Notes: generated by a model not told the origin, from the letters alone. A DNA stretch of 64,000 nt from a virus (IMGVR_UViG_2974673286_000001:89269-153268); one strand, 5' to 3'; shown: positions 15,320 through 41,839, counted from the first letter of the stretch. Program-made: numbers and translations.

Positions 15320-15847
15320 ATGAAAATTTCAGAAGCTATGAAGCAAGCTACTGTAACCCTCAACGATGGGGATTACTTGGCTGCAAATACAGACTCTGTT
15401 GGATATCTCCCAACATATAAAGACACAAGCGACCTTCACAGAGGTAAATATCTCTTTAAAGTCGTATCTAAAGGGGAGAACGCATTTGATGTTATTCCGG
15501 TGCTCTTAGCAGCAGACGGAAAGTCTTTTGTTGAAGACCCAGAACATCCGGTTGTCTCTCAGTCCGGGAGCACATTAAGCTATGTGACAACTCGTAACGA
15601 TCCTGAGTACAAGGACGGTTACCGCCCACCTAATACTCATGTAGTTAAAGACATTGCAGCAGGTGAAGAAGCTCGCAGCATCTTAGCCGCTTTCATTGCA
15701 TTCGTCAATAGCGAGTATTCTATGGGTGTTAACGACTTCAATATTGAAGGTCCTGATTACTTAAACACTGGTGCAGCTCCAGAGCCTCCACCAGCAGAGG
15801 AATCTGCCCCAACAGAACCTACAGAACCGACAGAACCAACAACTTAA
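15320..15847 (+). CDS. Putative virion-associated protein with PTE-repeat tail
   Basis: Follows holin in the putative late unit; C-terminal (PTE)n. Confidence 0.45.
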   Translation: MKISEAMKQATVTLNDGDYLAANTDSVGYLPTYKDTSDLHRGKYLFKVVSKGENAFDVIPVLLAADGKSFVEDPEHPVVSQSGSTLSYVTTRNDPEYKDGYRPPNTHVVKDIAAGEEARSILAAFIAFVNSEYSMGVNDFNIEGPDYLNTGAAPEPPPAEESAPTEPTEPTEPTT

Positions 15848-28317: not shown

Positions 28318-28458
28318 AAAGGAGGGCTGCATGCCTTCTTTTTTTTTATTTTTTTTTTGGAAAAAGTTATAAAAAGATGTAGACAGTAATAAGTCTGTAT
28401 GTTACACTTTATTCATACAAAAGATACAGGAACTAAGTATGGAAGGTGGGGTTACAGA

Positions 28459-29496
28459 ATGGGAAATACAAAGCTAAGAATACTTTCTGAAGAGGAAGTA
28501 CAGGACCTATTAGTTCAGATTCGAGAAGGCTCTGAGGAAGCGAAGGAGACCTTAGTAAAACATAGTATGGGTCTTGTGAAGAGTGTAATAAACAAAAGAT
28601 TCAGATATACAGAACATCCAATAGAGGATTTAATTAGTGCAGGGGTAGAAGGGCTTTTGACAGCTATCAATAGATACGATGCAAGTAAGGGTGTAAACTT
28701 CTTTACATATGCTACACCTATGGTGAAGGGGTATACTCGGACATTTGCCTTAGAAAATGGAGCTACGAGAGTCCCTCGAAAGACTAGGGCACTTGCATTT
28801 AAAATTAGGAGTCGAGGACTACTGGATGCACCAGAAGAAAAGGTGGTTGAAGAATTTAATATAGCGGAGGAAGACAGATATAGAGTAAGGGTTGCACAGG
28901 GATATCTACGGAATGGACATAGCCTATTATCAACCAACGTAACGGTCAACCACGGAGAAAGCAGTTCAGATGATACAGATTTATCTGATCTTGCTGACTA
29001 TCGTAACAATGACTTGAACGGAGACCATTGGTTTGATATGGTAGCTATTAAGGTAGAGGCTAGTAAACTTCCAGAGCTACAGCAGCGTATTCTAGAACTA
29101 AGCTTTAATAAAGAGATGTCTCACCCGGAGATTGGAAAACTGCTAGGTATGCCACCACATCAAGTAGGTGTTCAGAAAAGAGCAGCAATAGACGCTTTAA
29201 GGCTAGCGTTCCTTGGGGAAGAGAAGGTAGCCGAGTTAAAACTTAAAGAAAAACGAAAACCGTTTAAAAGGATTACACCAGAGCAGAAGGAGCAAATTAT
29301 TAAGCTGCTAAGAGAAACAACTTTAACTTACGGGGAAATTGGGGAACTAGTTGGGGTTACACACTCTCCAGTTAGTAAACTAGCAAAGGAGCACAGGTCT
29401 CCTGAAGTGATTCAAGCCAACCGGAAGAGAGTCCACCGAAACTTAGCTCAGTACCAGAAAGATAAAAAGAAGAAAGGACAGAAACAAAATGTCTAA
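28459..29496 (+). CDS. SigF/SigG/SigB-like RNA polymerase sigma factor with extra C-terminal HTH
   Basis: GSEEAKETLVKHSMGLV, EDLISAGVEGLLTAINRYDASKGVNFFTYATPMVKG, region 4 LPELQQRILEL...EIGKLLG. Confidence 0.85.
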   Translation: MGNTKLRILSEEEVQDLLVQIREGSEEAKETLVKHSMGLVKSVINKRFRYTEHPIEDLISAGVEGLLTAINRYDASKGVNFFTYATPMVKGYTRTFALENGATRVPRKTRALAFKIRSRGLLDAPEEKVVEEFNIAEEDRYRVRVAQGYLRNGHSLLSTNVTVNHGESSSDDTDLSDLADYRNNDLNGDHWFDMVAIKVEASKLPELQQRILELSFNKEMSHPEIGKLLGMPPHQVGVQKRAAIDALRLAFLGEEKVAELKLKEKRKPFKRITPEQKEQIIKLLRETTLTYGEIGELVGVTHSPVSKLAKEHRSPEVIQANRKRVHRNLAQYQKDKKKKGQKQNV

Positions 29497-30025: not shown

Positions 30026-30608
30026 GTTTAAAGACGTAGAGAGCTTATTATCGGTGCTCGATGACTGGGTAGACCGCCGGGTGAAGTCGATTGAAAAACG
30101 ACTTCTTCTGATAGATGCTCCCGATATTCCTGTAGGTCAAAAGGAGTTAGAAGTTAAAATACTAGCTGCTGTTGTAGCAGAGATAGAAGGTTACTTGAGA
30201 GATGTCATAGGGGTGGATGTTAATGACCCGAACTGTCCATTACAATACGCAAAAGACACTATTAACCTCATGCTCTCAGAGATACAAGAGTATAAGGACT
30301 TGCCAGTAGAAGATGACGAAGAGGAGCAGACACCAGCGCATAAAAAAGCAACTGAAATGGAATTAGCCATTAAGAGGAGCACAGAAGGACTAGAAAGTGT
30401 AGTTAGCACCTTAATAGACTACGACTCAGGGATTAAAGCCCTACAAAAAGCTCGTACTAAAGCTATGACTCTTAAAGACCTGATGCCATACGACACTAAG
30501 GAAATTCCCGAAGAGCTTCAAGATGTACCTTCTCGTTTGTATACTCTGGTGTCCCGTTTAGATACAGTGATACAGAATAGTACACTAGTAAAGGAGACTG
30601 ATAAGTAA
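30018..30608 (+). CDS. Helical hypothetical protein
   Basis: Operon packing. Confidence 0.7.
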   Translation: MSKFKDVESLLSVLDDWVDRRVKSIEKRLLLIDAPDIPVGQKELEVKILAAVVAEIEGYLRDVIGVDVNDPNCPLQYAKDTINLMLSEIQEYKDLPVEDDEEEQTPAHKKATEMELAIKRSTEGLESVVSTLIDYDSGIKALQKARTKAMTLKDLMPYDTKEIPEELQDVPSRLYTLVSRLDTVIQNSTLVKETDK

Positions 30609-31813
30609 TGATCGAAGTAAAAGGCAAGTATAACTCAGCTAAAATTTTTACAGATAACATTGAAGAAACGGCAATGGGGCAGGTTATTGAACTGTGTAAC
30701 CAAGAGTTCGCAAAAGACAGCAAGATTCGTATTATGCCGGATGTACACGCTGGAGCAGGCTGCACAATTGGGACAACAATGACAATCACAGACAAAGTAG
30801 TTCCAAATTTAGTAGGTGTTGACATTGGGTGTGGCTTGGAAGTTGCGTACATTGACGTGGATAAATCCGAGGTTAACTTCGACCAGCTGGATGATGTTAT
30901 TCGAAAGTATGTGCCTAGCGGTTTTTCTGTCCGAGGTAGGGAGCACCAATACACTGAGTTTGTCCCGCTTAGTTTGGTGAGAGCTCCGATTAATAAAAAC
31001 CGTGCAAAACTAAGCATTGGGACGCTCGGGTCAGGGAATCACTTCATCGAACTTAACGAGGTTGGTCCGGGGAGAGTAGCCCTTGTCATCCATTCAGGGT
31101 CACGAAGCTTAGGCAAGCAGGTCGCTGAGCATTACCAAGACCGAGCTTATGAAGAGCTGATGGATGTTAAAAACGAGCAGCAGCGGATCATTGAAGAATT
31201 AAAGTCTCAAGGAAAGGCTCACGAAATTCACGAAGCTCTCCGAGGTATTAAAAAGCCTAAGATCAAAAAAGACCTTGCATACTTACAAGGGAACTCTTTT
31301 GAAGACTATATGAACGATATGCGTATCGCTCAACGCCACGCTCTTTACAATCGAAAAGCCATGGTACAGCAAATTGTTGAACATATGGGTTGGGGTGCTG
31401 CGTGGCACATAGGGGACTCGTTTACCACGATCCACAACTACATCGACATGGACCACATGATCCTTCGTAAAGGTGCTATTTCCGCCCGGAAAGGTGAGAA
31501 AGTTATTATCCCAATCAATATGAGAGATGGGAGCATCATTGCAGAAGGAACAGGTAATCCCGATTGGAATTTCTCCGGTCCTCACGGAGCTGGTCGAGTA
31601 ATGAGCCGATCTAAAGCTAAGAAGAATCTAAACGTTGAAGACTTTAAGAAATCAATGGAAGGTATCTGGACTTCTTCAGTAAATGAGCACACTCTGGATG
31701 AGGCACCTATGGTTTACAAGCCGCTGGACGAAATCCGAGAGAACATTGAAGAAGGCGGATCAGTCAAAGTGCTGCAAGTTATTAAGCCAGTATATAATTT
31801 CAAAGCGAACTAA
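30608..31813 (+). CDS. rtcB: RtcB family RNA ligase
   Basis: IMPDVHAG, VGVDIGCG, GTLGSGNHFIE, IHSGSR, HRK-like LRKGA, PHGAGR, DEAPMVYK. Confidence 0.95.
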   Translation: MIEVKGKYNSAKIFTDNIEETAMGQVIELCNQEFAKDSKIRIMPDVHAGAGCTIGTTMTITDKVVPNLVGVDIGCGLEVAYIDVDKSEVNFDQLDDVIRKYVPSGFSVRGREHQYTEFVPLSLVRAPINKNRAKLSIGTLGSGNHFIELNEVGPGRVALVIHSGSRSLGKQVAEHYQDRAYEELMDVKNEQQRIIEELKSQGKAHEIHEALRGIKKPKIKKDLAYLQGNSFEDYMNDMRIAQRHALYNRKAMVQQIVEHMGWGAAWHIGDSFTTIHNYIDMDHMILRKGAISARKGEKVIIPINMRDGSIIAEGTGNPDWNFSGPHGAGRVMSRSKAKKNLNVEDFKKSMEGIWTSSVNEHTLDEAPMVYKPLDEIRENIEEGGSVKVLQVIKPVYNFKAN

Positions 31814-35187: not shown

Positions 35188-35218
35188 AAAAACAAGGGTT
35201 ATCCCCTTGTTTTTTTTT
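35188..35218 (+). terminator. Intrinsic terminator upstream of the ParM cassette
   Basis: AAAACAAGGG...CCCTTGTTTT plus T run. Confidence 0.85.
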
Positions 35219-35228
35219 ATTATGTACA

Positions 35229-35258
35229 GACATAGGATTCCGCATATGCCCATAAAGT
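35229..35258 (+). promoter_or_regulatory. Putative sporulation sigmaE-type promoter
   Basis: GACATA-16 nt-CATAAAGT; no sigmaA -35 box between terminator and parM. Confidence 0.5.
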
Positions 35259-35313
35259 AGAATCACAAGGGTATTACAAAGTATGCGAAGGAATGACAAA
35301 GGAGGAGTTAAGT

Positions 35314-36393
35314 ATGACAAAGTATGCGGGTTTTAATGTAAAAGCGTTGGACGATGGGTACGGGGATGTAAAATTCGACAGCACAGGTTCTCCTAATCTT
35401 ATCCCATCATTCGTCACAAGTTTTAAGGAGAAGCCTAAAAAGGACTTTGGGCAAGACAGTAAGCTGCGGTATGTAGCCAGTGAGATTGATGGAGAAAGAT
35501 ATGTAGTAGGAGACTACGCAATGAAGCTGGACCCCAACATCATCTGGGCTGGAGGGGAAAACAAACACGCTGACAAGAGGTTCCCGGTCTTATTAAAAAC
35601 TACCCTTGGGCTAATGAGCTCGGGAAGACATGAAGTAATCGACACACTTATGATGAACCTTCCTATCAGATACGACACAGAGGAGAGACGGCAGCAGCTT
35701 ACAGAAGTGGCTCAGGGAACCCACACCGTAGCTTTAAGCAGCGATGGAGTAAACTTCATTAAAAGAATGGTCACAGTAAATAACGTGGAGATTAAGAAGC
35801 AGCCGTTCGGTAGCCTGTGTGATGTGATACTAGATGGTAACGGGGACATCATTGATAAGGACACAGCCAAAGGGTTCAACGTCATTGTAGATGTAGGTGC
35901 CCGGACACTAAACATCCTCACTGTAGACGCCTTAGAGGAACAGACAGAGCTTTCACTACAAACGAACGATGGGATGTACACCGCATTCAGTCAGGTAGGC
36001 TCCTATCTAGAGAAGGAGCTTGACGTGATCATCCCGGACGGTAAGCTGCCGCAGATCATTAGTCAAAAGGAAATCAAGAACATGGATATCACACCGCTTA
36101 TTAATAGCACATACGAGAATCATGCCAACACAATACTAGCTGTACTAGACAAGGTGCTAGTCAACTCATGGGGTTTTGTTACTTCTGTTATCTTCACAGG
36201 CGGAGGAGCCGGGAAAGAGCTGCTGAGACCGTATATTGAAAAGCGCTTCAACAGAGTACCTTCTATCTTCTTGGACCGTTATTCGAATGTCAGAGGTCTC
36301 CGCAAGTATGGAATCCGACAATCGAAAAAGAACCCTAAGAAGGTAAATAACATCAAGATTCAGGTGGGCAATCATGAGTACAGTCCGAAGTAA
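35314..36393 (+). CDS. parM: ParM/StbA family actin-like protein
   Basis: LDDGYGDVK, IVDVGARTLN and FTGGGA actin-fold motifs; AAGGAGG RBS. Confidence 0.88.
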   Translation: MTKYAGFNVKALDDGYGDVKFDSTGSPNLIPSFVTSFKEKPKKDFGQDSKLRYVASEIDGERYVVGDYAMKLDPNIIWAGGENKHADKRFPVLLKTTLGLMSSGRHEVIDTLMMNLPIRYDTEERRQQLTEVAQGTHTVALSSDGVNFIKRMVTVNNVEIKKQPFGSLCDVILDGNGDIIDKDTAKGFNVIVDVGARTLNILTVDALEEQTELSLQTNDGMYTAFSQVGSYLEKELDVIIPDGKLPQIISQKEIKNMDITPLINSTYENHANTILAVLDKVLVNSWGFVTSVIFTGGGAGKELLRPYIEKRFNRVPSIFLDRYSNVRGLRKYGIRQSKKNPKKVNNIKIQVGNHEYSPK

Positions 36394-36682
36394 GAAAAAC
36401 AACAGACGAACACTTTACCTTAGTGATAGGAAGGATAAGGACATTCTGGAGTATATTGAGCCGCTTATGGATGAACGCTATGACTTTTCCTTTGTGATCC
36501 GGGAGCTGGTTAGAGATGGGATTAAATACAGAACCTGCCCGACCGCAGCTCCCGTACCACCTACCCAAGTTGTACCACAGGAAAGTGGCATACAAAGTAA
36601 TCCTCCTGAGCTGTCCAATATCGTTTTGAAGAAGAAAGAGTTGTCCGATGCAGACATCGAGGATAGGCTAGATAGCTTCTAA
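36374..36682 (+). CDS. Putative ParR-like DNA-binding adaptor
   Basis: RRTLYL...DKDILEYIE...SFVIRELVRDGI ribbon-helix-helix-like pattern, acidic tail, directly after parM. Confidence 0.65.
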   Translation: MSTVRSKKNNRRTLYLSDRKDKDILEYIEPLMDERYDFSFVIRELVRDGIKYRTCPTAAPVPPTQVVPQESGIQSNPPELSNIVLKKKELSDADIEDRLDSF

Positions 36683-36810
36683 TTTCCCGCTTCTTTCCCA
36701 AAAGCCTTATTTCCGGCGGGAAACGGGAAAAATACAGTAAAAAGCCCGAAAATAGTGTGTTTTTAGAGTGTGGGAATTAAGGAAATAAGGGAAGAAAGAG
36801 GTGAGAAAAG

Positions 36811-37383
36811 GTGGTCAAATACACGATCACTTCACGGTTTCACGATAAAGAGGAATTTAGGGATCACGTACACCAAGGAGTCGATCTGGCGATGCCTGAA
36901 GGAACTGATCTGAAAGCCATAGTCGATGGAGTAATCAGAACAGCAGACTACGGTAGTTCTTCCACAGGAAAAACGGTGTTCATAGACGCAGCCGATGGAA
37001 AGACGTACATCTATGGACACCTGAAGGATTTCTCTGTAAGCGATGGGCAGCCGATACATGTGGGTGATATTTTAGGTCATTCAGGTAACTCTGGTCATGT
37101 TGTAGGTAGCAATGGCGGGTATCATCTCCACTTCGGTATAAAGGAGCACGGAGAATTTATAGACCCGACACCGTACACTTCACTCATTCAGCATATGGAT
37201 CAGTTAAAAGGGGCAGCTCACGCAACCGTTAACTCTGGCTTGGATGCTCTGGAAATGCTAAACCAAGCGCTGAGCCAGTTTACTCAGACGTTATCGGAGA
37301 TGACTCTGAACTGCATCAGTCTATTACTCGAAAATCGTACAGTGTCTCTAATATCCGATATAGTTCTCTCATGGTTATGTTGA
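36811..37383 (+). CDS. M23 family peptidase
   Basis: ITSRF, HQGVD, YGHL, GHSGNSG, HLHF. Confidence 0.9.
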   Translation: MVKYTITSRFHDKEEFRDHVHQGVDLAMPEGTDLKAIVDGVIRTADYGSSSTGKTVFIDAADGKTYIYGHLKDFSVSDGQPIHVGDILGHSGNSGHVVGSNGGYHLHFGIKEHGEFIDPTPYTSLIQHMDQLKGAAHATVNSGLDALEMLNQALSQFTQTLSEMTLNCISLLLENRTVSLISDIVLSWLC

Positions 37384-37543
37384 CATTCTGCTTATCCTGA
37401 ATTGTGTGAAGAACCAGATGATCGACATTCTGCATTTGCTTCTCATATCTGGTCAGCGGTTTAGAGTCAAAGAGCACGGTCGCTACCTCCTTTCAAGAGT
37501 TAGTATGTCCGGTCGAATTTCAATTATACAGGGGGAATTAAAA

Positions 37544-37744
37544 ATGACGAGTATCTTTTTGGCAGTAGGCGGAGTTGCAGTTGTTTGTTCGGCAGGGACT
37601 GGATTAGCAGCAGCTTTGAAGTGGTTCCATAACTACGAGCCAGACGTGGATAAAAAGAAAAAGACCGTTAGAGAAACACGTAACCCGAACAGAAGCCGAC
37701 TAGACGATTTGAGTAAAAAAGTACGTACAGATAATCATCTATAA
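37544..37744 (+). CDS. Small membrane protein
   Basis: AGGGGG RBS; N-terminal TM segment, basic tail. Confidence 0.65.
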   Translation: MTSIFLAVGGVAVVCSAGTGLAAALKWFHNYEPDVDKKKKTVRETRNPNRSRLDDLSKKVRTDNHL

Positions 37745-37757
37745 GGAGGTAACTGAA

Positions 37758-38309
37758 ATGATTATTACAATGTCATCCAGAGAGCTCAATTCAGCCGTCA
37801 GTTACAAGAGTCCGGTACAGCAGTTTAACCTTAAGGAGAAAGTTGAGGACAATGTGCTTTTTATTGCGGACACCCTGCAAAAGGAGGTGATCAAGGGAAC
37901 GACCGGACAGCAAAGAAAAAAGATCAAGCAGCTGAAGAAATTGCTGAAAGGATTCGTTGTGGTTATGGGGGCGGGAATACAAGCAACACCCAAAGCCTTT
38001 GCCGCAGCACCTCTAACCGGAGCAACCACGACAGTAGCAGCCAATCAGATAACACCAGCTCTGGTAATGAAATGGGGTCTGAATTTAGCTTTAATCTCTG
38101 TATCGGTGGGCGTAGCATTGTCGATGACTCTTCTGACGCTAGCCGGGATTTACAGGATGATGAGGAAGCGGAAGGAAGCGGAGGAGTGGAGCGTAGATGT
38201 AATCAAGGGTCTCGTGCAGGTTTTAGTTGCGGTCCCGGTCGTATATCTGCTCTTTTATCTGGCGCAAACGGTATTCAAAAGCTTGCCGATTTTAAGCGGA
38301 CTCTTTTAA
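37758..38309 (+). CDS. Membrane protein, TrbC/VirB2 pilin-like
   Basis: Basic-hydrophobic-AFA leader followed by two TM helices separated by a basic loop. Confidence 0.5.
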   Translation: MIITMSSRELNSAVSYKSPVQQFNLKEKVEDNVLFIADTLQKEVIKGTTGQQRKKIKQLKKLLKGFVVVMGAGIQATPKAFAAAPLTGATTTVAANQITPALVMKWGLNLALISVSVGVALSMTLLTLAGIYRMMRKRKEAEEWSVDVIKGLVQVLVAVPVVYLLFYLAQTVFKSLPILSGLF

Positions 38310-39433
38310 AAGCAGCTACACTGGCACCCGTAGCGGTTCTCTCTTCCGCTGTTGTCTCTTCCATGTCGGCAAAAGCCTACGCACAAGCTACAGATGTAAA
38401 AGCACCCATCGACCTTCTTTTGCTGGGACGTAACAAAGATCAAAATATCCTGACTGCTATACCTGATGCGGTACAGACGTTTAATACAGCTGTAGCTAAA
38501 GTAAATGAGTTCCTTTCAGACCTCCCACACAATATCGCTGAAATGTCCGTCCATTTAATGAGCTGGCTGTATGAACTATGTGCTACACTGATCCTTAAGA
38601 CTCCCTTGTGGCTTTTTAATAACGAGTGGTTTGAGAATACCACTTATCTGTTTAGTTTGCTGGCTATCGGTATCGTTTCCGTTCTGACCGTCATTGAATC
38701 GGTAAAGCTCATGCTCAGCAGAGGAAAGAAAAAGAGATCAGGTCCGATGGATTTTAAACTGATCATGCAACGGTGGGGGATTGTAGCAGCGGCAATGACC
38801 GGAATACCTTTCTGCTTTCAGAAAGCCTTCCAAGGATTGAACAAGATATCAGATGTACTCATCTCAATGGGAGCGAGTACGATGGACGCTATCGCTCTCC
38901 CTACTCATATCTCTGTATGGGATGTGTGCTCGCTGGTGTTATTCGATGTAGTTCTTATTTCTACTATTGTTCCGGTGCTGTGGCAGAATGGCAGAAGATT
39001 TTTTGATGTCATGGTTTTGGGAGTAACAGCTCCGCTGGCACTGACAGCTTGGATATTCGATCCGTACAGACATCTATTCCAGCAGTGGTGGAATAACCTG
39101 AAACACTTGTCTATGGTGCAGGTTTACTATGCGCTCTTTCTACTGATCCTTGGCTGGTTTATATTTGGCGTACCGACACCCAAGGACGTTGTAGGGATCG
39201 TAGTGAAGATGCTTGTAGTAATCGGAGGGTTCACCAGAATGACTTCTCCACCAAGACTTATTGCTAAACATCTGGATAATGGTGGCGGGCTGGATGAAGT
39301 GTACGGCGGAAATAAAAATGATACCATTAAAAAAGTTCAACGGAACTTTAAAGATACAGCCAAGATTCTTATGAAGCCGTCTTCAGCGGCACAGACAGTT
39401 TTCAAGCGTGTTAAAGACATGAAGAAAAAATAG
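38072..39433 (+). CDS. Polytopic membrane protein, TrbL/VirB6-like (start uncertain)
   Basis: Multiple TM segments; RRFFDVMVLGVTAPLALTAWIFDPYRHLFQQWW resembles VirB6-type proteins. Confidence 0.55.
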   Translation: MGSEFSFNLCIGGRSIVDDSSDASRDLQDDEEAEGSGGVERRCNQGSRAGFSCGPGRISALLSGANGIQKLADFKRTLLKAATLAPVAVLSSAVVSSMSAKAYAQATDVKAPIDLLLLGRNKDQNILTAIPDAVQTFNTAVAKVNEFLSDLPHNIAEMSVHLMSWLYELCATLILKTPLWLFNNEWFENTTYLFSLLAIGIVSVLTVIESVKLMLSRGKKKRSGPMDFKLIMQRWGIVAAAMTGIPFCFQKAFQGLNKISDVLISMGASTMDAIALPTHISVWDVCSLVLFDVVLISTIVPVLWQNGRRFFDVMVLGVTAPLALTAWIFDPYRHLFQQWWNNLKHLSMVQVYYALFLLILGWFIFGVPTPKDVVGIVVKMLVVIGGFTRMTSPPRLIAKHLDNGGGLDEVYGGNKNDTIKKVQRNFKDTAKILMKPSSAAQTVFKRVKDMKKK

Positions 39434-39550
39434 GAGGTAAAGTCATGAGTGCAGGCATGCTTATTCTGATTCTGAATACCACGATGCTGCTGACAAACGC
39501 ATTAGTTACATCAGTACAAAGTAGTCTGATTATGAAAGCTGTGAGAGACG

Positions 39551-41785
39551 ATGCTAAAAGTTAATCCAAGTTATCAGAACATTTCCAATTACTTTGTGGA
39601 GACGCAGGATGTGAGTACAGGACTCTCCCGGATCATAAAGGAAGTAACAGATTCTCTGTTTGGAGTAGAGATCATAATGTCTTCAGGGGTGACCACTAAG
39701 TTTCTCATCACCCCTCCTCATGTTCGATTAGGAGAAGATGCCTCAAGCTTTCGAGAATCCTCTGTGAGCGGTTTTACGTTCTATGAAGGGTATTTATCTC
39801 GTCCACACTTTCTACCGCTGTACGGGGCTAATAAGGGGCAATTTTTAAGTGATCTGGAGGACATTGCTTTGTACAATGGAGAGCGGTTGTGTATACAGCT
39901 GCTCTTTAAGAAAAAGTTCCATTGGAAAGAGAAAGCCTTAGACATGTATGCAAGTTACTTAGAAGGGAACGACTACCCGGCATCATTTAGAATCGGCAGG
40001 TTTATTCAGGAGAAGACATTATCTGTACTGAACAGGATAGCTTCTTTTGAATCGGTAAATGAGTACGTGCCAGAAGTGGAGGAAAAGCTGCTCAGTGAGG
40101 GCTTTCAGTTCCAGATGCGGGTAGCGATGCAATCCGAGCGAGAAGACTACTTAAAGAGCAGGGTCACTCAGGTACTGCGGACTTACGATTCCCATAATTC
40201 TATCCGGTTGTATAAACAAAAGCATAAACAAACCGAGACTCAGTATGAAACGTGCATTATGACATCGGAGACAGGAGACCAGATAATAAGTACAAAAGAA
40301 CTCTTCTCCTTATTAGGAAGCCAAAACGTAGTAGCTCCCCAGACGGCATCTGTTTCCCTATCCACACCAACAGTTACGAAAGAAATTATTAAGCTGCTGC
40401 CGGAACATCACAGAGAGGAAGTCCATGCAGATGAGAGCCTCGTTATGAGTATCGCTGAAGCTCTTAAACGGGTAGGGTTGATTAAAATGGCACGAGTCTA
40501 CAATGAATCTGTAACAGCAGGTATTAGATTAACTGTAGTTCAGTGCGACATCCCTAAAGGAAAGAACCTGAGTCATATTGTACAGAAGGGTAAGGACATA
40601 CAGGCAGCACTAGGTGTCCCTTCATTAGGAGTTGAGCAAGGAGATACTGCTGACACAGTTAAGTTTGTCATTCCGAATAACCAACCTGCTATCATCAGCC
40701 TTAGAGAACTGATTGGCACAGCCAACTTCCAAGAGTACAGTAAGAACAATGAACTAGCCTTTGCTGTAGGTGTGGACGAAGTGAACAACCCAATCTATTT
40801 ATCACTGGCTAAGCTTGTTCATCTCATGGTAGCGGGAACTACCGGAAGTGGTAAGTCCGTGTTCCTAAACTCGATGATCACTACACTGCTAGTCAGTTAC
40901 CCTCCTGATAGGTTACGGATGACTCTGATTGACCCTAAGCAGGTAGAGCTACAGCAGTACAAGGGATTCCCTCATGTAGACGATGTGGTCACAGACATGG
41001 GAGGTGCTGCACAAGTATTAGAAGACCTTGTTATGGAAATGGAGAAGCGATACAAAACATTTAAAGATAACGATGTGAAGAACATTACTCTGTACAATCA
41101 GAAGTCAAGTACACCTATGCCTTATACCGTCTGTGTTATAGATGAGTATGCGGACCTCGTGGACACAAATAAGGAAGTCGAAGAATACATTGCTCGCTTA
41201 GGTCAGAAAGCACGGGCAGCAGGTATTCACCTAGTCATCGCCACTCAGAGACCAAGTTCGAATATTCTTAGCGGCAGGATCAAAGCAAACATCCCGAACG
41301 CCATCAGCTTTAACTTAAACACCAGCGTCAATTACAGAACTGTTTTTGGTACGACTATCCCTTATACTGGGTTGTTAGGTAAAGGAGACGGAGTAATGAA
41401 GATTGAGGGATACCCTAAAGAGTTCCAACGCTTCCAGAGTGCTATAATTGCCCCGGATGAGGCGGAGGAGGAGAAAGTATACAAAGACCTTATTGACTAT
41501 TATGGGGGAGCTGAAGTCTCTCCAGAGGCAGAAGAGGTACCGGAACAGCCGGAACAAGAACCTGAAGTGGAGGATGACCACCTATACCGACTAAAGCAAG
41601 TGATAGCTACTACAGAGGAAACCAGAGTAGAGCCACTTAGGAAAGCATTAGGTGTGAAGACTGCAAAGATGAAGGAACTCATGGGTAAATTAGTGGAAGA
41701 AGGTTGGCTTGTTAAGCATAAGGAGCGATCTAAAGGTTACGAGCTGGTCTGTCCCGAGTCAATCTTATCAGAGTGGAGAGAATAA
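39551..41785 (+). CDS. ftsK: FtsK/SpoIIIE family DNA translocase
   Basis: HLMVAGTTGSGKS, LIDPKQVEL, VIDEYAD, QKARAAGIHLVIATQRPS, LLGKGD; wHTH-like C-terminus. Confidence 0.93.
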   Translation: MLKVNPSYQNISNYFVETQDVSTGLSRIIKEVTDSLFGVEIIMSSGVTTKFLITPPHVRLGEDASSFRESSVSGFTFYEGYLSRPHFLPLYGANKGQFLSDLEDIALYNGERLCIQLLFKKKFHWKEKALDMYASYLEGNDYPASFRIGRFIQEKTLSVLNRIASFESVNEYVPEVEEKLLSEGFQFQMRVAMQSEREDYLKSRVTQVLRTYDSHNSIRLYKQKHKQTETQYETCIMTSETGDQIISTKELFSLLGSQNVVAPQTASVSLSTPTVTKEIIKLLPEHHREEVHADESLVMSIAEALKRVGLIKMARVYNESVTAGIRLTVVQCDIPKGKNLSHIVQKGKDIQAALGVPSLGVEQGDTADTVKFVIPNNQPAIISLRELIGTANFQEYSKNNELAFAVGVDEVNNPIYLSLAKLVHLMVAGTTGSGKSVFLNSMITTLLVSYPPDRLRMTLIDPKQVELQQYKGFPHVDDVVTDMGGAAQVLEDLVMEMEKRYKTFKDNDVKNITLYNQKSSTPMPYTVCVIDEYADLVDTNKEVEEYIARLGQKARAAGIHLVIATQRPSSNILSGRIKANIPNAISFNLNTSVNYRTVFGTTIPYTGLLGKGDGVMKIEGYPKEFQRFQSAIIAPDEAEEEKVYKDLIDYYGGAEVSPEAEEVPEQPEQEPEVEDDHLYRLKQVIATTEETRVEPLRKALGVKTAKMKELMGKLVEEGWLVKHKERSKGYELVCPESILSEWRE

Positions 41786-41810
41786 AATTGAATTATTTTG
41801 CATAATGGGG

Positions 41811-41839
41811 TTGACTTTCAGTCAGCTCCTTTTTATACT
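41811..41839 (+). promoter_or_regulatory. sigmaA promoter
   Basis: TTGACT-17-TATACT. Confidence 0.75.

Follow-up and report, generated by a model that had tools for sequence, protein, structure and literature searches.

The DNA stretch analyzed here, referred to as the window, comprises the last 64,000 nucleotides of a virus record with 153,268 bases and a completeness of 97% (IMGVR_UViG_2974673286_000001:89269-153268); genome-wide searches covered the whole record. Between positions 35188 and 41829 the window contains eight co-directional plus-strand genes that are bracketed by two terminators and are designated the cassette. They code for an actin-like ATPase of the ParM/Alp type, a 102-amino-acid putative adaptor resembling ribbon-helix-helix (RHH) proteins, an M23 peptidase, the small membrane protein DUF7394, a VirB2-like and a VirB6-like membrane protein, a 39-amino-acid transmembrane (TM) peptide, and an FtsK/SpoIIIE-type motor (Table 1); the VirB2-like, VirB6-like, and FtsK genes are called the trio below. 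A previous interpretation made from the DNA sequence alone, the sequence-only reading, had predicted a segregation and DNA-transfer cassette composed of ParM, a ParR-like protein, an M23 peptidase, a pilin-like protein, a VirB6-like protein, and FtsK, and all genes named were found at the given place and on the plus strand. Its number of three membrane proteins had to be raised to four, because the additional 39-amino-acid TM open reading frame (ORF) was found. In megablast searches the stretch 35188-41785 matched 49 phage records, all of Bacillus phages, with a coverage of at least 80% in 33 of them; the best identities were obtained for SBSphiJ1 (95.8%), Grass (95.6%), and phiNIT1 (95.1%). 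Grass is classified in its record as Herelleviridae, Bastillevirinae, Nitunavirus, and the window likewise belongs to Nitunavirus.

Table 1. Features of the cassette and its borders (window coordinates), and Xre/Cro-type genes of homologous loci (coordinates of the respective locus)
Feature	Position	Strand	Basis or remark
Intrinsic terminator ending the upstream unit	35188..35214	+	Hairpin, 11-pair stem, T-run
Promoter-like element, GTACAGACA + 17 nt + CCATAAAGT	35224..35258	+	Conserved blocks; single genome occurrence
Four direct iterons, GWATBACAARG, at 35260, 35271, 35291, 35312	35260..35322	+	Repeat search
Actin-like ParM/Alp ATPase, 359 aa	35314..36393 (ORF from 35293)	+	Pfam, PHROG
RHH-like putative adaptor, 102 aa	36374..36682	+	phrog_3536; 20-nt overlap with ParM gene
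Inverted repeat, 11-nt arms, 26-nt loop	36683..36730	+	In 128-nt gap 36683-36810
M23 (LytM-type) peptidoglycan endopeptidase	36811..37383	+	PF01551 1.7e-23; phrog_7767
DUF7394 small membrane protein, 66 aa	37544..37744	+	PF24126 3.2e-33
VirB2/TrbC-like protein, 183 aa	37758..38309	+	phrog_3528; profile A2
VirB6/TrbL-like polytopic membrane protein, 5-6 TM	ORF 38072..39433	+	phrog_3750; AF2 model
Single-TM peptide between channel and motor genes, 39 aa	39445..39564	+	Hydropathy; annotated in Grass, 035JT004
Soluble FtsK/SpoIIIE-type motor, 744 aa	39551..41785	+	PF01580 2.1e-47
Terminator ending the cassette	41807..41829	+	Hairpin, 10 pairs, T-run
Sigma-A-like promoter, TTGACT-17-TATACT	41811..41839		Overlaps cassette-ending terminator
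Xre/Cro helix-turn-helix (HTH) gene	L004 7668-8093; L041 8723-9139; L003 3794-4216; L042 10421-10855; L044 10751-11197		

The boundaries of the cassette are sharp. A co-directional unit running from a terminator to a sigma-A promoter had been proposed, and this description agreed with the two terminators and the sigma-A-like site found here and with the Grass record, in which terminators are annotated at the equivalents of both cassette ends. The T-run of the upstream terminator is kept in relatives, as seen in an alignment of upstream regions. The total numbers of terminator-like and promoter-like sites across the region were not above those of shuffled sequences (10 vs 7.9 and 17 vs 19.1, respectively). 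Within the cassette, a hairpin scan detected no hairpin with a proper T tail and hence no convincing internal terminator.

The region between the upstream terminator and the ParM gene contains a promoter-like element and an array of four iterons. In the 153-kb genome the tight pattern of the promoter-like element occurs only once, namely between the upstream terminator and the iterons, and its blocks are kept in an alignment of 15 upstream regions. A composite pattern was present in 21 of 32 upstream regions compared to 4 of 932 control windows, the pattern having been derived from the same sequences. The iterons overlap the ribosome-binding site and the start of the ParM gene. Their pattern, likewise derived from the sites themselves, gave 4 matches in the window vs 0.42 expected, a number reached in none of 100 shuffles, and 6 matches genome-wide, 4 of which are located upstream of ParM. 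A related iteron core precedes the actin gene of 31 out of 32 related loci, with a mean of 1.88 copies vs 0.13 in 915 control windows. Judged by sequence and by its position next to a putative promoter, as in ParMRC systems, the array is a candidate parC-like centromere or operator.

The deduced actin-like protein matched PF17989 (2.7e-20), PF21522 (4.6e-18), PF22128 (5.5e-4), and phrog_691, annotated as "partition protein" (7e-101). The ParM equivalog model NF010498 was matched with 4.6e-22, but the score of 78.7 bits was far under the cut-off of 417, and we therefore regard the protein as an Alp-family member and not as an orthologue of R1 ParM. In the case of the 102-amino-acid protein, no Pfam or PDB sequence match was obtained, and a PDB profile search gave chance Bcl-2 hits (E >0.2). 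An alignment of its family revealed a conserved N-terminal strand-helix-helix pattern and an invariant C-terminal end of the type RLDxF, connected by a linker that varies. Its Atlas neighbour was PF10784 (Plasmid_stab_B, the R1-type ParR family) with a score of 0.85, which is a lead only, and its size and its position directly 3′ of the actin gene would fit a ParR-type adaptor. In phiNIT1, SPG24, BSP10, and other relatives, whose matches fall into two pieces, an HNH homing-endonuclease gene is inserted in the gap that follows the adaptor gene (annotated in the three phages named); the phage studied here is without this insert, and a contig of sequencing run X2 has 766 extra letters at 36692/36810.

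Upstream iterons, an actin-like ATPase, and a small adaptor make up the layout of ParMRC systems. The cassette shares this arrangement, with the actin-like gene followed directly by a gene for a small protein of putative DNA-binding type and with iterons that overlap the promoter region. It differs from ParMRC in that the ParM model scores far under its cut-off and the adaptor lacks a family match, and also in that it is found in a virulent phage, for which no plasmid state is known, and is linked to a channel/motor set. A comparable phage/prophage actin system is AlpC/AlpA of the Corynebacterium prophage CGP3, where the actin-like protein is reported to be needed for viral DNA replication (PMC4446434).

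Among the membrane proteins, DUF7394 has one N-terminal TM segment (residues 1-25) and a basic tail. The 183-amino-acid protein encoded next to it consists of a 60-amino-acid N-terminal part, a leader-like segment ending in AFAAA (AxA motif), and a two-TM hairpin with a basic loop, whose residues 100-174 were modeled with predicted local distance difference test (pLDDT) values of 82-92. The profile of this family, A2, matched a 165-amino-acid protein of a Niallia plasmid (hhalign, 98.3%, E 1.8e-14), which passes PF04956 TrbC with 31.0 bits vs a cut-off of 27.9 and is named TrbC/VirB2 by PGAP. A second plasmid homologue gave a TrbC match of 1.5e-4, and the homologue of pBMB26 gave none. The label VirB2-like stands for a transitive link, because the match runs via the Niallia homologue and not via the window protein, and by this route the sequence comparisons support a VirB2/TrbC-like identity of the 183-amino-acid protein.

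The ORF of the polytopic membrane protein overlaps the gene of the 183-amino-acid protein in another frame, and the same overlap is present in relatives. No Pfam match was obtained for this protein, nor for 104 of 105 close homologues. A structural model (AF2/AlphaFold, 27 sequences, pLDDT 70.6) was compared with the PDB by Foldseek, and the top five hits were all chains of R388 TrwI/VirB6, with weak values (E 0.04-0.15, TM-score 0.34/0.42). When aligned with TrwI/VirB6 chain 7o3v_F by VIA-align, the model reached a Z value of 12.0 (root mean square deviation 4.9, 237 of 261 residues aligned), which for an all-helical model is in the range of the tool's common-arrangement warning; the next matches had Z values of 7.8 (DotA-IcmX, another type IV secretion system [T4SS]) and 7.1. 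We argue that the relation to VirB6 is real because of the 4-unit gap in Z and the near-full coverage. An exhaustive profile search yielded 169 cluster representatives among 1.84 billion, and in a scan of 29 more distant profile hits, TrbL/VirB6-type Pfam models were above cut-off in 4 and reached E<=0.01 in 9. The modeled fold and these TrbL-family sequence relatives support the assignment of the protein to the VirB6/TrbL type. The pilin-like and VirB6-like calls, the boldest identities of the sequence-only reading, were both supported, the first transitively by the Niallia homologue that passes the TrbC threshold and the second by the VirB6 fold and the TrbL relatives.

As to the start of the VirB6-like protein, a conserved signal-peptide-like segment (ending in KAYA, followed by Q) is encoded 5′ of ATG 38363, the first ATG behind the overlap. 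Canonical in-frame starts upstream of it are limited to GTG 38186, directly abutting GGAGGA, and ATG 38072, both inside the VirB2-like gene. The Niallia VirB6-like homologue starts 64 nt within its VirB2 gene and has a lipobox, and in Grass the VirB6-like gene is unannotated. A -1 frameshift fusing the VirB2-like and VirB6-like ORFs was considered and dropped, no slippery site being recognizable by eye. The M23 protein contains the catalytic motifs HxxxD and HxH in its translation.

The motor is composed of an N-domain (residues ~1-320), an alpha/beta motor domain (~314-640), an acidic linker, and a C-terminal end resembling a winged helix-turn-helix (wHTH). Its best PDB relation was FtsK 2ius (2.1e-54, two matched stretches, best for residues 323-520). 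The "DNA translocase coupling protein" 6o1w, which we take to be TcpA of pCW3, was matched with 1.6e-17, and type VII EssC/EccC was likewise far weaker than 2ius. For the N-domain no Pfam family was found, and Atlas scores of <=0.83 offered no usable lead; all 44 hits obtained with it were FtsK_SpoIIIE proteins of 445-797 amino acids from Bacillus-type phages or contigs and a few bacterial records. The C-terminal 86 residues gave a weak match to a wHTH regulator (E 0.37), and the homologue in locus L004 matched MarR with 1e-3. Full-length motor homologues were present in 157 phage records, all but one named as Bacillus phages. The record "Xanthomonas phage Xoo-sp15" contains a homologue of the whole motor as is typical for phages of the B. 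cereus group and is possibly mislabelled. An orientation bias of a SpoIIIE-type 8-mer was also inspected (10 on the plus vs 3 on the minus strand) and rejected as uninformative, because its orientation follows the gene strand.

The sequence-only reading had stated that relaxase, VirB4, and integrase are absent, and the whole-genome searches upheld this: no matches were found for VirB4 (PF03135) or for the relaxase families PF03432 (Relaxase) and PF13814 (Replic_Relax), and no tyrosine integrase or Xer-type recombinase was detected. The only trace of AAA_10 in the genome was a weak match of 12.4 bits within the FtsK-like gene. These results bear on the idea that the cassette performs intracellular housekeeping, in which the motor, tethered to the membrane by the small proteins, removes or resolves host DNA or phage concatemers where septa close and all DNA stays in the cell. 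The motor domain is indeed a typical FtsK alpha/beta pump, and recombinase genes adjoin temperate cassettes (in L004 one of the tyrosine type behind FtsK, in L031 one of the serine type), but this phage has no Xer-type recombinase and the VirB2-like protein, the VirB6-like protein, and the wall peptidase would be left unexplained, so that we consider pure housekeeping very unlikely.

The distribution of the cassette was analyzed with a profile-anchored scan based on the VirB6-like protein, which replaced a single-protein FtsK scan of viral contigs that had found only 4 close loci. It yielded 33 distinct viral loci with 10-kb flanks. Each of the trio genes was present in all 33 loci, DUF7394 in 32, where it lies just 5′ of the VirB2-like gene, and matches to ParM and the 102-amino-acid ORF in 31 (tblastn). 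The two loci without a ParM match, L041 and L031, carry a divergent ALP_N actin-like gene beside the trio, so that the trio is joined by an actin-like gene at every one of the 33 loci. Twelve flanking ORFs (~2 kb upstream and ~4 kb downstream) were common to only 0-5 of the 33 loci. The notion of a co-conserved unit, implied by the sequence-only reading, is in line with these numbers, since cassette genes recur in 30-33 of 33 loci (M23 in 15) and flanks in 0-5.

These data also bear on an explanation in which the two halves are unrelated neighbours, the ParM-like protein and its adaptor positioning phage DNA or supporting its replication, and the trio serving a separate purpose at the membrane such as superinfection exclusion, DNA uptake, or anchoring of replication. 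The role of a prophage actin-like protein in viral DNA replication (PMC4446434) would suit such a division, as would the opposite strand of the actin gene in L031, the variable genes inserted between the halves (M23, HNH, Xre-type HTH, and a 331-amino-acid ORF), and a plasmid-borne trio that stands without ParM. On the other side are the association of an actin-like gene, even a divergent ALP, with the trio in all viral loci and also in phage 0305phi8-36 and Aquibacillus, and the single promoter-like element without a convincing internal terminator. We regard unrelated neighbours as a rather unlikely explanation.

Outside virulent phages, the whole cassette was found in Aquibacillus saliphilus (L004) at 38-52% identity, with different flanks and a tyrosine recombinase gene after FtsK. 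The region is prophage-like, with portal, virion, polymerase, and integrase genes, and the VirB6-like gene was present in 2 of 246 genomes of the bacterial family to which Aquibacillus belongs. A shorter Virgibacillus contig has the trio behind an Xre-type HTH gene. By tblastn the VirB6-like protein was found on 12 plasmids of 121-364 kb, all of them typed as non-mobilizable; these are large Bacillaceae plasmids. Homology between the motor of the Niallia plasmid and that of the window extends over the whole protein (E 2e-83).

In the prophage-like, viral-contig, and plasmid versions, a gene of ~140 codons for an Xre/Cro-type HTH protein lies directly 5′ of the DUF7394/VirB2-like genes (Table 1); none is present at that place in the virulent Nitunavirus version. 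Plasmid CP053689 (L043, labelled Arthrobacter citreus) contains a gene for an alpha/beta-type small acid-soluble spore protein at 15447-15647, ~550 nt 3′ of the FtsK-like gene, and this gene content points to a host that forms spores and possibly to a mislabelled record. A copy of the 183-amino-acid protein that is 95% identical (P0121) is encoded on a 4.2-Mb Bacillus subtilis contig, and other copies are on smaller B. subtilis and B. licheniformis contigs; these could stem from co-assembly of phage DNA, from a carrier state, or from integration.

The sequence-only reading knew of no description of these genes as one system, and this has to be corrected. Pathria et al. described in 2012 a homologous "DNA translocation operon" (orf200-207) of the lytic Bacillus thuringiensis phage 0305phi8-36, which comprises a relaxase-like gene, a TM-less coupling-type ATPase, a VirB6 homologue, and an MreB-like gene and has counterparts in SPO1 (gp27.3/27.4/27.9). 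Its deletion caused no growth defect in the laboratory, and a cell-to-cell spread in biofilms was speculated upon (PMC3357382). The VirB6 homologue, TM-less ATPase, and actin-like gene of that operon all have equivalents in our cassette. Moreover, 0305phi8-36 shows the same gene order, that is, actin-like gene, small RHH-like ORF, ~170-amino-acid two-TM protein, VirB6-like protein, 39-amino-acid TM peptide (orf202), and large TM-less ATPase. Similarity was detectable between the VirB6-like protein and orf203 (E 9e-14), the 102-amino-acid ORF and orf206 (E 4e-4), profile A2 and orf204 (91.7%, E 8e-7; orf204 also matches T4SS_pilin with 9.7e-4), and the motor N-domain and orf201 (hhalign, 92.4%, E 5e-7). 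The actin genes of both phages code for an ALP_N and an MreB-like_C domain.

The two systems differ in their ATPases, that of the window being an FtsK_SpoIIIE protein, whereas orf201 is without a Pfam match and is described by its authors as VirD4/AAA_10-like (PMC3357382); no BLASTP similarity was found between the window motor and orf201. The window genome has no homologue of the relaxase-like (MobC/Replic_Relax-type) orf200, and M23 and DUF7394 are extra in comparison to 0305phi8-36. A pilin-like protein, an adaptor, iterons, and a promoter were not pointed out by Pathria et al. The cassette is consequently of a known kind that is already in print, and what is new here are the FtsK-type motor, the absence of a relaxase, M23, and the defined iterons and promoter. 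In the case of Bastille-type phages, FtsK/SpoIIIE and ParM were called interesting and of unknown role in the Grass announcement (PMC3853049), and a comparative paper reports a SpoIIIE family for 21 Bastille-like phages, with a "plasmid segregation protein" in the vicinity (PMC4528723).

The envelope half of the cassette shows both similarities to and differences from known DNA transport systems. With conjugative T4SSs (R388 TrwI/VirB6, TrbC/VirB2) it shares the VirB6 fold, TrbL relatives, and a VirB2/TrbC-family relative, and with T4SSs of monoderm bacteria a wall hydrolase in the operon and an FtsK-related ATPase (cf. TcpA of pCW3). Hydrolases of conjugation operons are typically lytic transglycosylases or NlpC/P60 proteins; the window has M23 instead. 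In contrast to T4SSs, the system lacks VirB4, relaxase, VirB8, and the TM anchor of VirD4, and chromosomal FtsK (2e-54) is a nearer relative of its motor than TcpA. With SpoIIIE/FtsK and Streptomyces TraB the motor has in common the alpha/beta domain and possibly the C-terminal wHTH-like end, but it is without an N-terminal TM domain, and its 320-amino-acid N-domain is specific to this phage/plasmid family. The archaeal Ced/Ted systems, minimal T4SS derivatives of three parts, are reported to move DNA with a VirB2-like protein, a VirB6-like channel, and only one P-loop ATPase, often with ParA-type genes nearby (PMC9905601). The likeness to the cassette is one of composition only; in sequence there was a weak CedB match (E 0.06). 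The archaeal ATPase differs in being VirB4/HerA-like and the direction in being import (PMC9905601).

From the conjugation-type parts, that is, the VirB2-like protein, the VirB6-like protein, and the wall hydrolase, it could be supposed, as already proposed in print for 0305phi8-36 (Pathria et al., PMC3357382), that phage DNA is exported into neighbouring cells of chains or biofilms without particles. For the trio on large plasmids typed as non-mobilizable, a relaxase-free route for double-stranded DNA would make sense. Streptomyces TraB, a single FtsK-like protein, transfers double-stranded DNA from cell to cell. The TraB model matched the window motor (7.7e-16), although far under its cut-off. 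Opposed to such spread are the lack of an adhesin, VirB8, or coupling-protein TM domain in Pfam scans and of VirB4 genome-wide, and the consideration that neighbouring cells are already open to infection by the particles of a lytic phage, which leaves little benefit in direct transfer. Cell-to-cell spread therefore appears to us clearly unlikely.

Building on the gene identities, homologies, sharp boundaries, and co-conservation of the cassette, we lean, if only slightly, toward the interpretation that it is one conserved, probably co-transcribed unit which joins a partition unit to a T4SS-derived conduit driven by an FtsK-type pump for double-stranded DNA. The first part would be a ParMRC-type (type II) partition set of iterons, actin-like ATPase, and RHH-like adaptor, the conserved C-terminal tail of the adaptor presumably binding the ParM filament. 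The second part would be a minimal type IV envelope conduit formed by the VirB2/TrbC-like and VirB6/TrbL-like proteins and two tiny TM proteins, with or without M23, and powered by the TM-less FtsK/SpoIIIE-type pump in place of VirB4/VirD4. The motor N-domain may dock on the membrane parts, possibly at the basic DUF7394 tail or at the cytoplasmic tail of the VirB6-like protein, which is strongly conserved, and the C-terminal wHTH-like end may select the DNA. ParM filaments would bring iteron-bearing phage DNA to a membrane site, M23, where present, would open the cell wall, and the motor would drive phage double-stranded DNA via the VirB6/VirB2 conduit across the septum or envelope into a forespore or sister cell. 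Ordinary lytic growth would not depend on the cassette, a view supported by the deletion of the 0305phi8-36 operon, which caused no growth defect (PMC3357382). The forespore is favored as a destination by the limitation of the hosts to endospore formers and by the CATA-type promoter, a neighbouring cell by the conjugation ancestry and the plasmid copies.

A number of observations weigh against this interpretation. VirB4 is described as the one universal T4SS protein (PMC4027160), and its absence speaks against T4SS membership; monoderm conjugation systems are said to have no pili (PMC9905601). The link of the 183-amino-acid protein to VirB2/TrbC is indirect: the window protein itself had no pilin-family match among Pfam and NCBIfam-type models, fold searches with its model returned only generic helical hairpins, and a PDB profile search gave nothing meaningful. 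The warning attached to the VirB6 alignment has to be added here. No hydrophobic or TM segment was found in the 744 residues of the motor by Kyte-Doolittle analysis, which leaves it without a membrane anchor, and the same type of scan showed no TM, signal, or export segment in the M23 protein. The M23 gene, listed by the sequence-only reading among the parts of the cassette, is optional, being present in 15 of the 33 viral loci and missing in 18. Three plasmids that were examined contain the Xre-type HTH, VirB2-like, VirB6-like, and FtsK genes and no ParM match within +/-12 kb; a trio without ParM means that the two units can work apart and that their functions may be independent of each other. 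This phage family in general conserves gene order well. Literature searches on Bastille-type phages yielded gene-by-gene mentions and no functional study of the cassette.

Delivery into the forespore would require cassette expression in the mother cell during sporulation and pumping of the positioned phage genome through the sporulation septum, giving more phage-carrying spores. The sequence-only reading had described the promoter as sigma-E-like, and part of this could be retained: the -10 block is of the CATA type, presumably that of mother-cell sigma factors, and a relaxed sigma-E-type pattern was present in 9 of 32 relatives vs 30 of 922 control windows. The window's own copy does not fit this pattern. 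Sigma-E-type patterns showed no excess over shuffles genome-wide, again with the cassette element unmatched. The genome codes for a sigma factor (28399-29496, ~6 kb upstream) that is closest to the SigB/F/G family (1e-28; SigG 4.5e-28), and by its sequence this SigF/G-like protein could be a candidate reader of the promoter-like element. Contigs from RNA libraries (Logan) of two studies on close relatives cover the stretch from 35187/35272 to 41782/42087, contigs of this type being unable to show strand, ends, timing, level, or transcription, or that the material is RNA. The flanks left uncovered in runs X3 and X4 are given no weight.

In favor of the forespore route, all named cellular or plasmid hosts are endospore-forming Bacillales (Bacillus, Niallia, Aquibacillus, Virgibacillus, Solibacillus, Ureibacillus), a gene for a spore protein adjoins the module on the "Arthrobacter" plasmid, FtsK/SpoIIIE pumps are the nearest relatives of the motor, and the single-occurrence promoter-like element has a CATA-type -10 block, with a relaxed sigma-E-type fit in the 9 relatives mentioned. 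In addition, a 2026 paper demonstrated phage-carrying spores for SPO1 and suggested its ParM gene as an entrapment aid (PMC12991052), and a phenotype of the 0305phi8-36 deletion was absent in vegetative laboratory growth (PMC3357382). The misfit of the window's own element to the relaxed sigma-E pattern argues against this route, as does the possibility that the phage's own SigF/G-like factor reads the element. If the RNA-library contigs derive from growing cultures, expression would not be restricted to sporulation, although the contigs prove neither; furthermore, a 6-kb Collinsella contig, named for a non-sporulating host, holds the family. Taken together, we consider forespore delivery possible but doubtful.

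A more specific version would be a septal DNA injector: a sporulation-type sigma factor, acting at a dedicated promoter, switches the cassette on after asymmetric division, ParM pushes iteron-tagged genomes to the septum, and the motor, docked on the VirB6/VirB2 conduit, pumps double-stranded DNA into the forespore, the trio in addition bringing large plasmids into the spore. In this specific form the proposal is, in our estimation, rather improbable. If correct, an active mechanism of virospore formation would be described for the first time, and likewise a DNA-transfer machine in which an FtsK pump is combined with channel parts of a T4SS. More generally, if DNA crosses a septum or passes from cell to cell, virulent phages infecting spore formers would gain a particle-free or spore-borne persistence. 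This would concern phage ecology, the carrier states of Bacillus cultures and fermentations, and the survival of sporulation by large plasmids, and the cassette would be a bacterial counterpart of archaeal Ced/Ted in which an FtsK pump for double-stranded DNA replaces VirB4. Even if no function is assigned, the annotation is now fixed for four "hypothetical" genes of ~157 sequenced Bacillus phages. With Grass, phiNIT1, and SBSphiJ and with Bacillus subtilis, the question is tractable and directly testable.

Two minor observations concern the surroundings of the promoter-like element. In run X3, the contig match starts at 35272, ~15 nt after the -10-like block, a position that is compatible with a transcript 5′ end and no proof of one; the letters before it look like rRNA, which suggests a chimeric join. 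An RtcB RNA ligase gene is located at 30608-31813 and thus, like the sigma factor gene, 4-7 kb upstream of the cassette.

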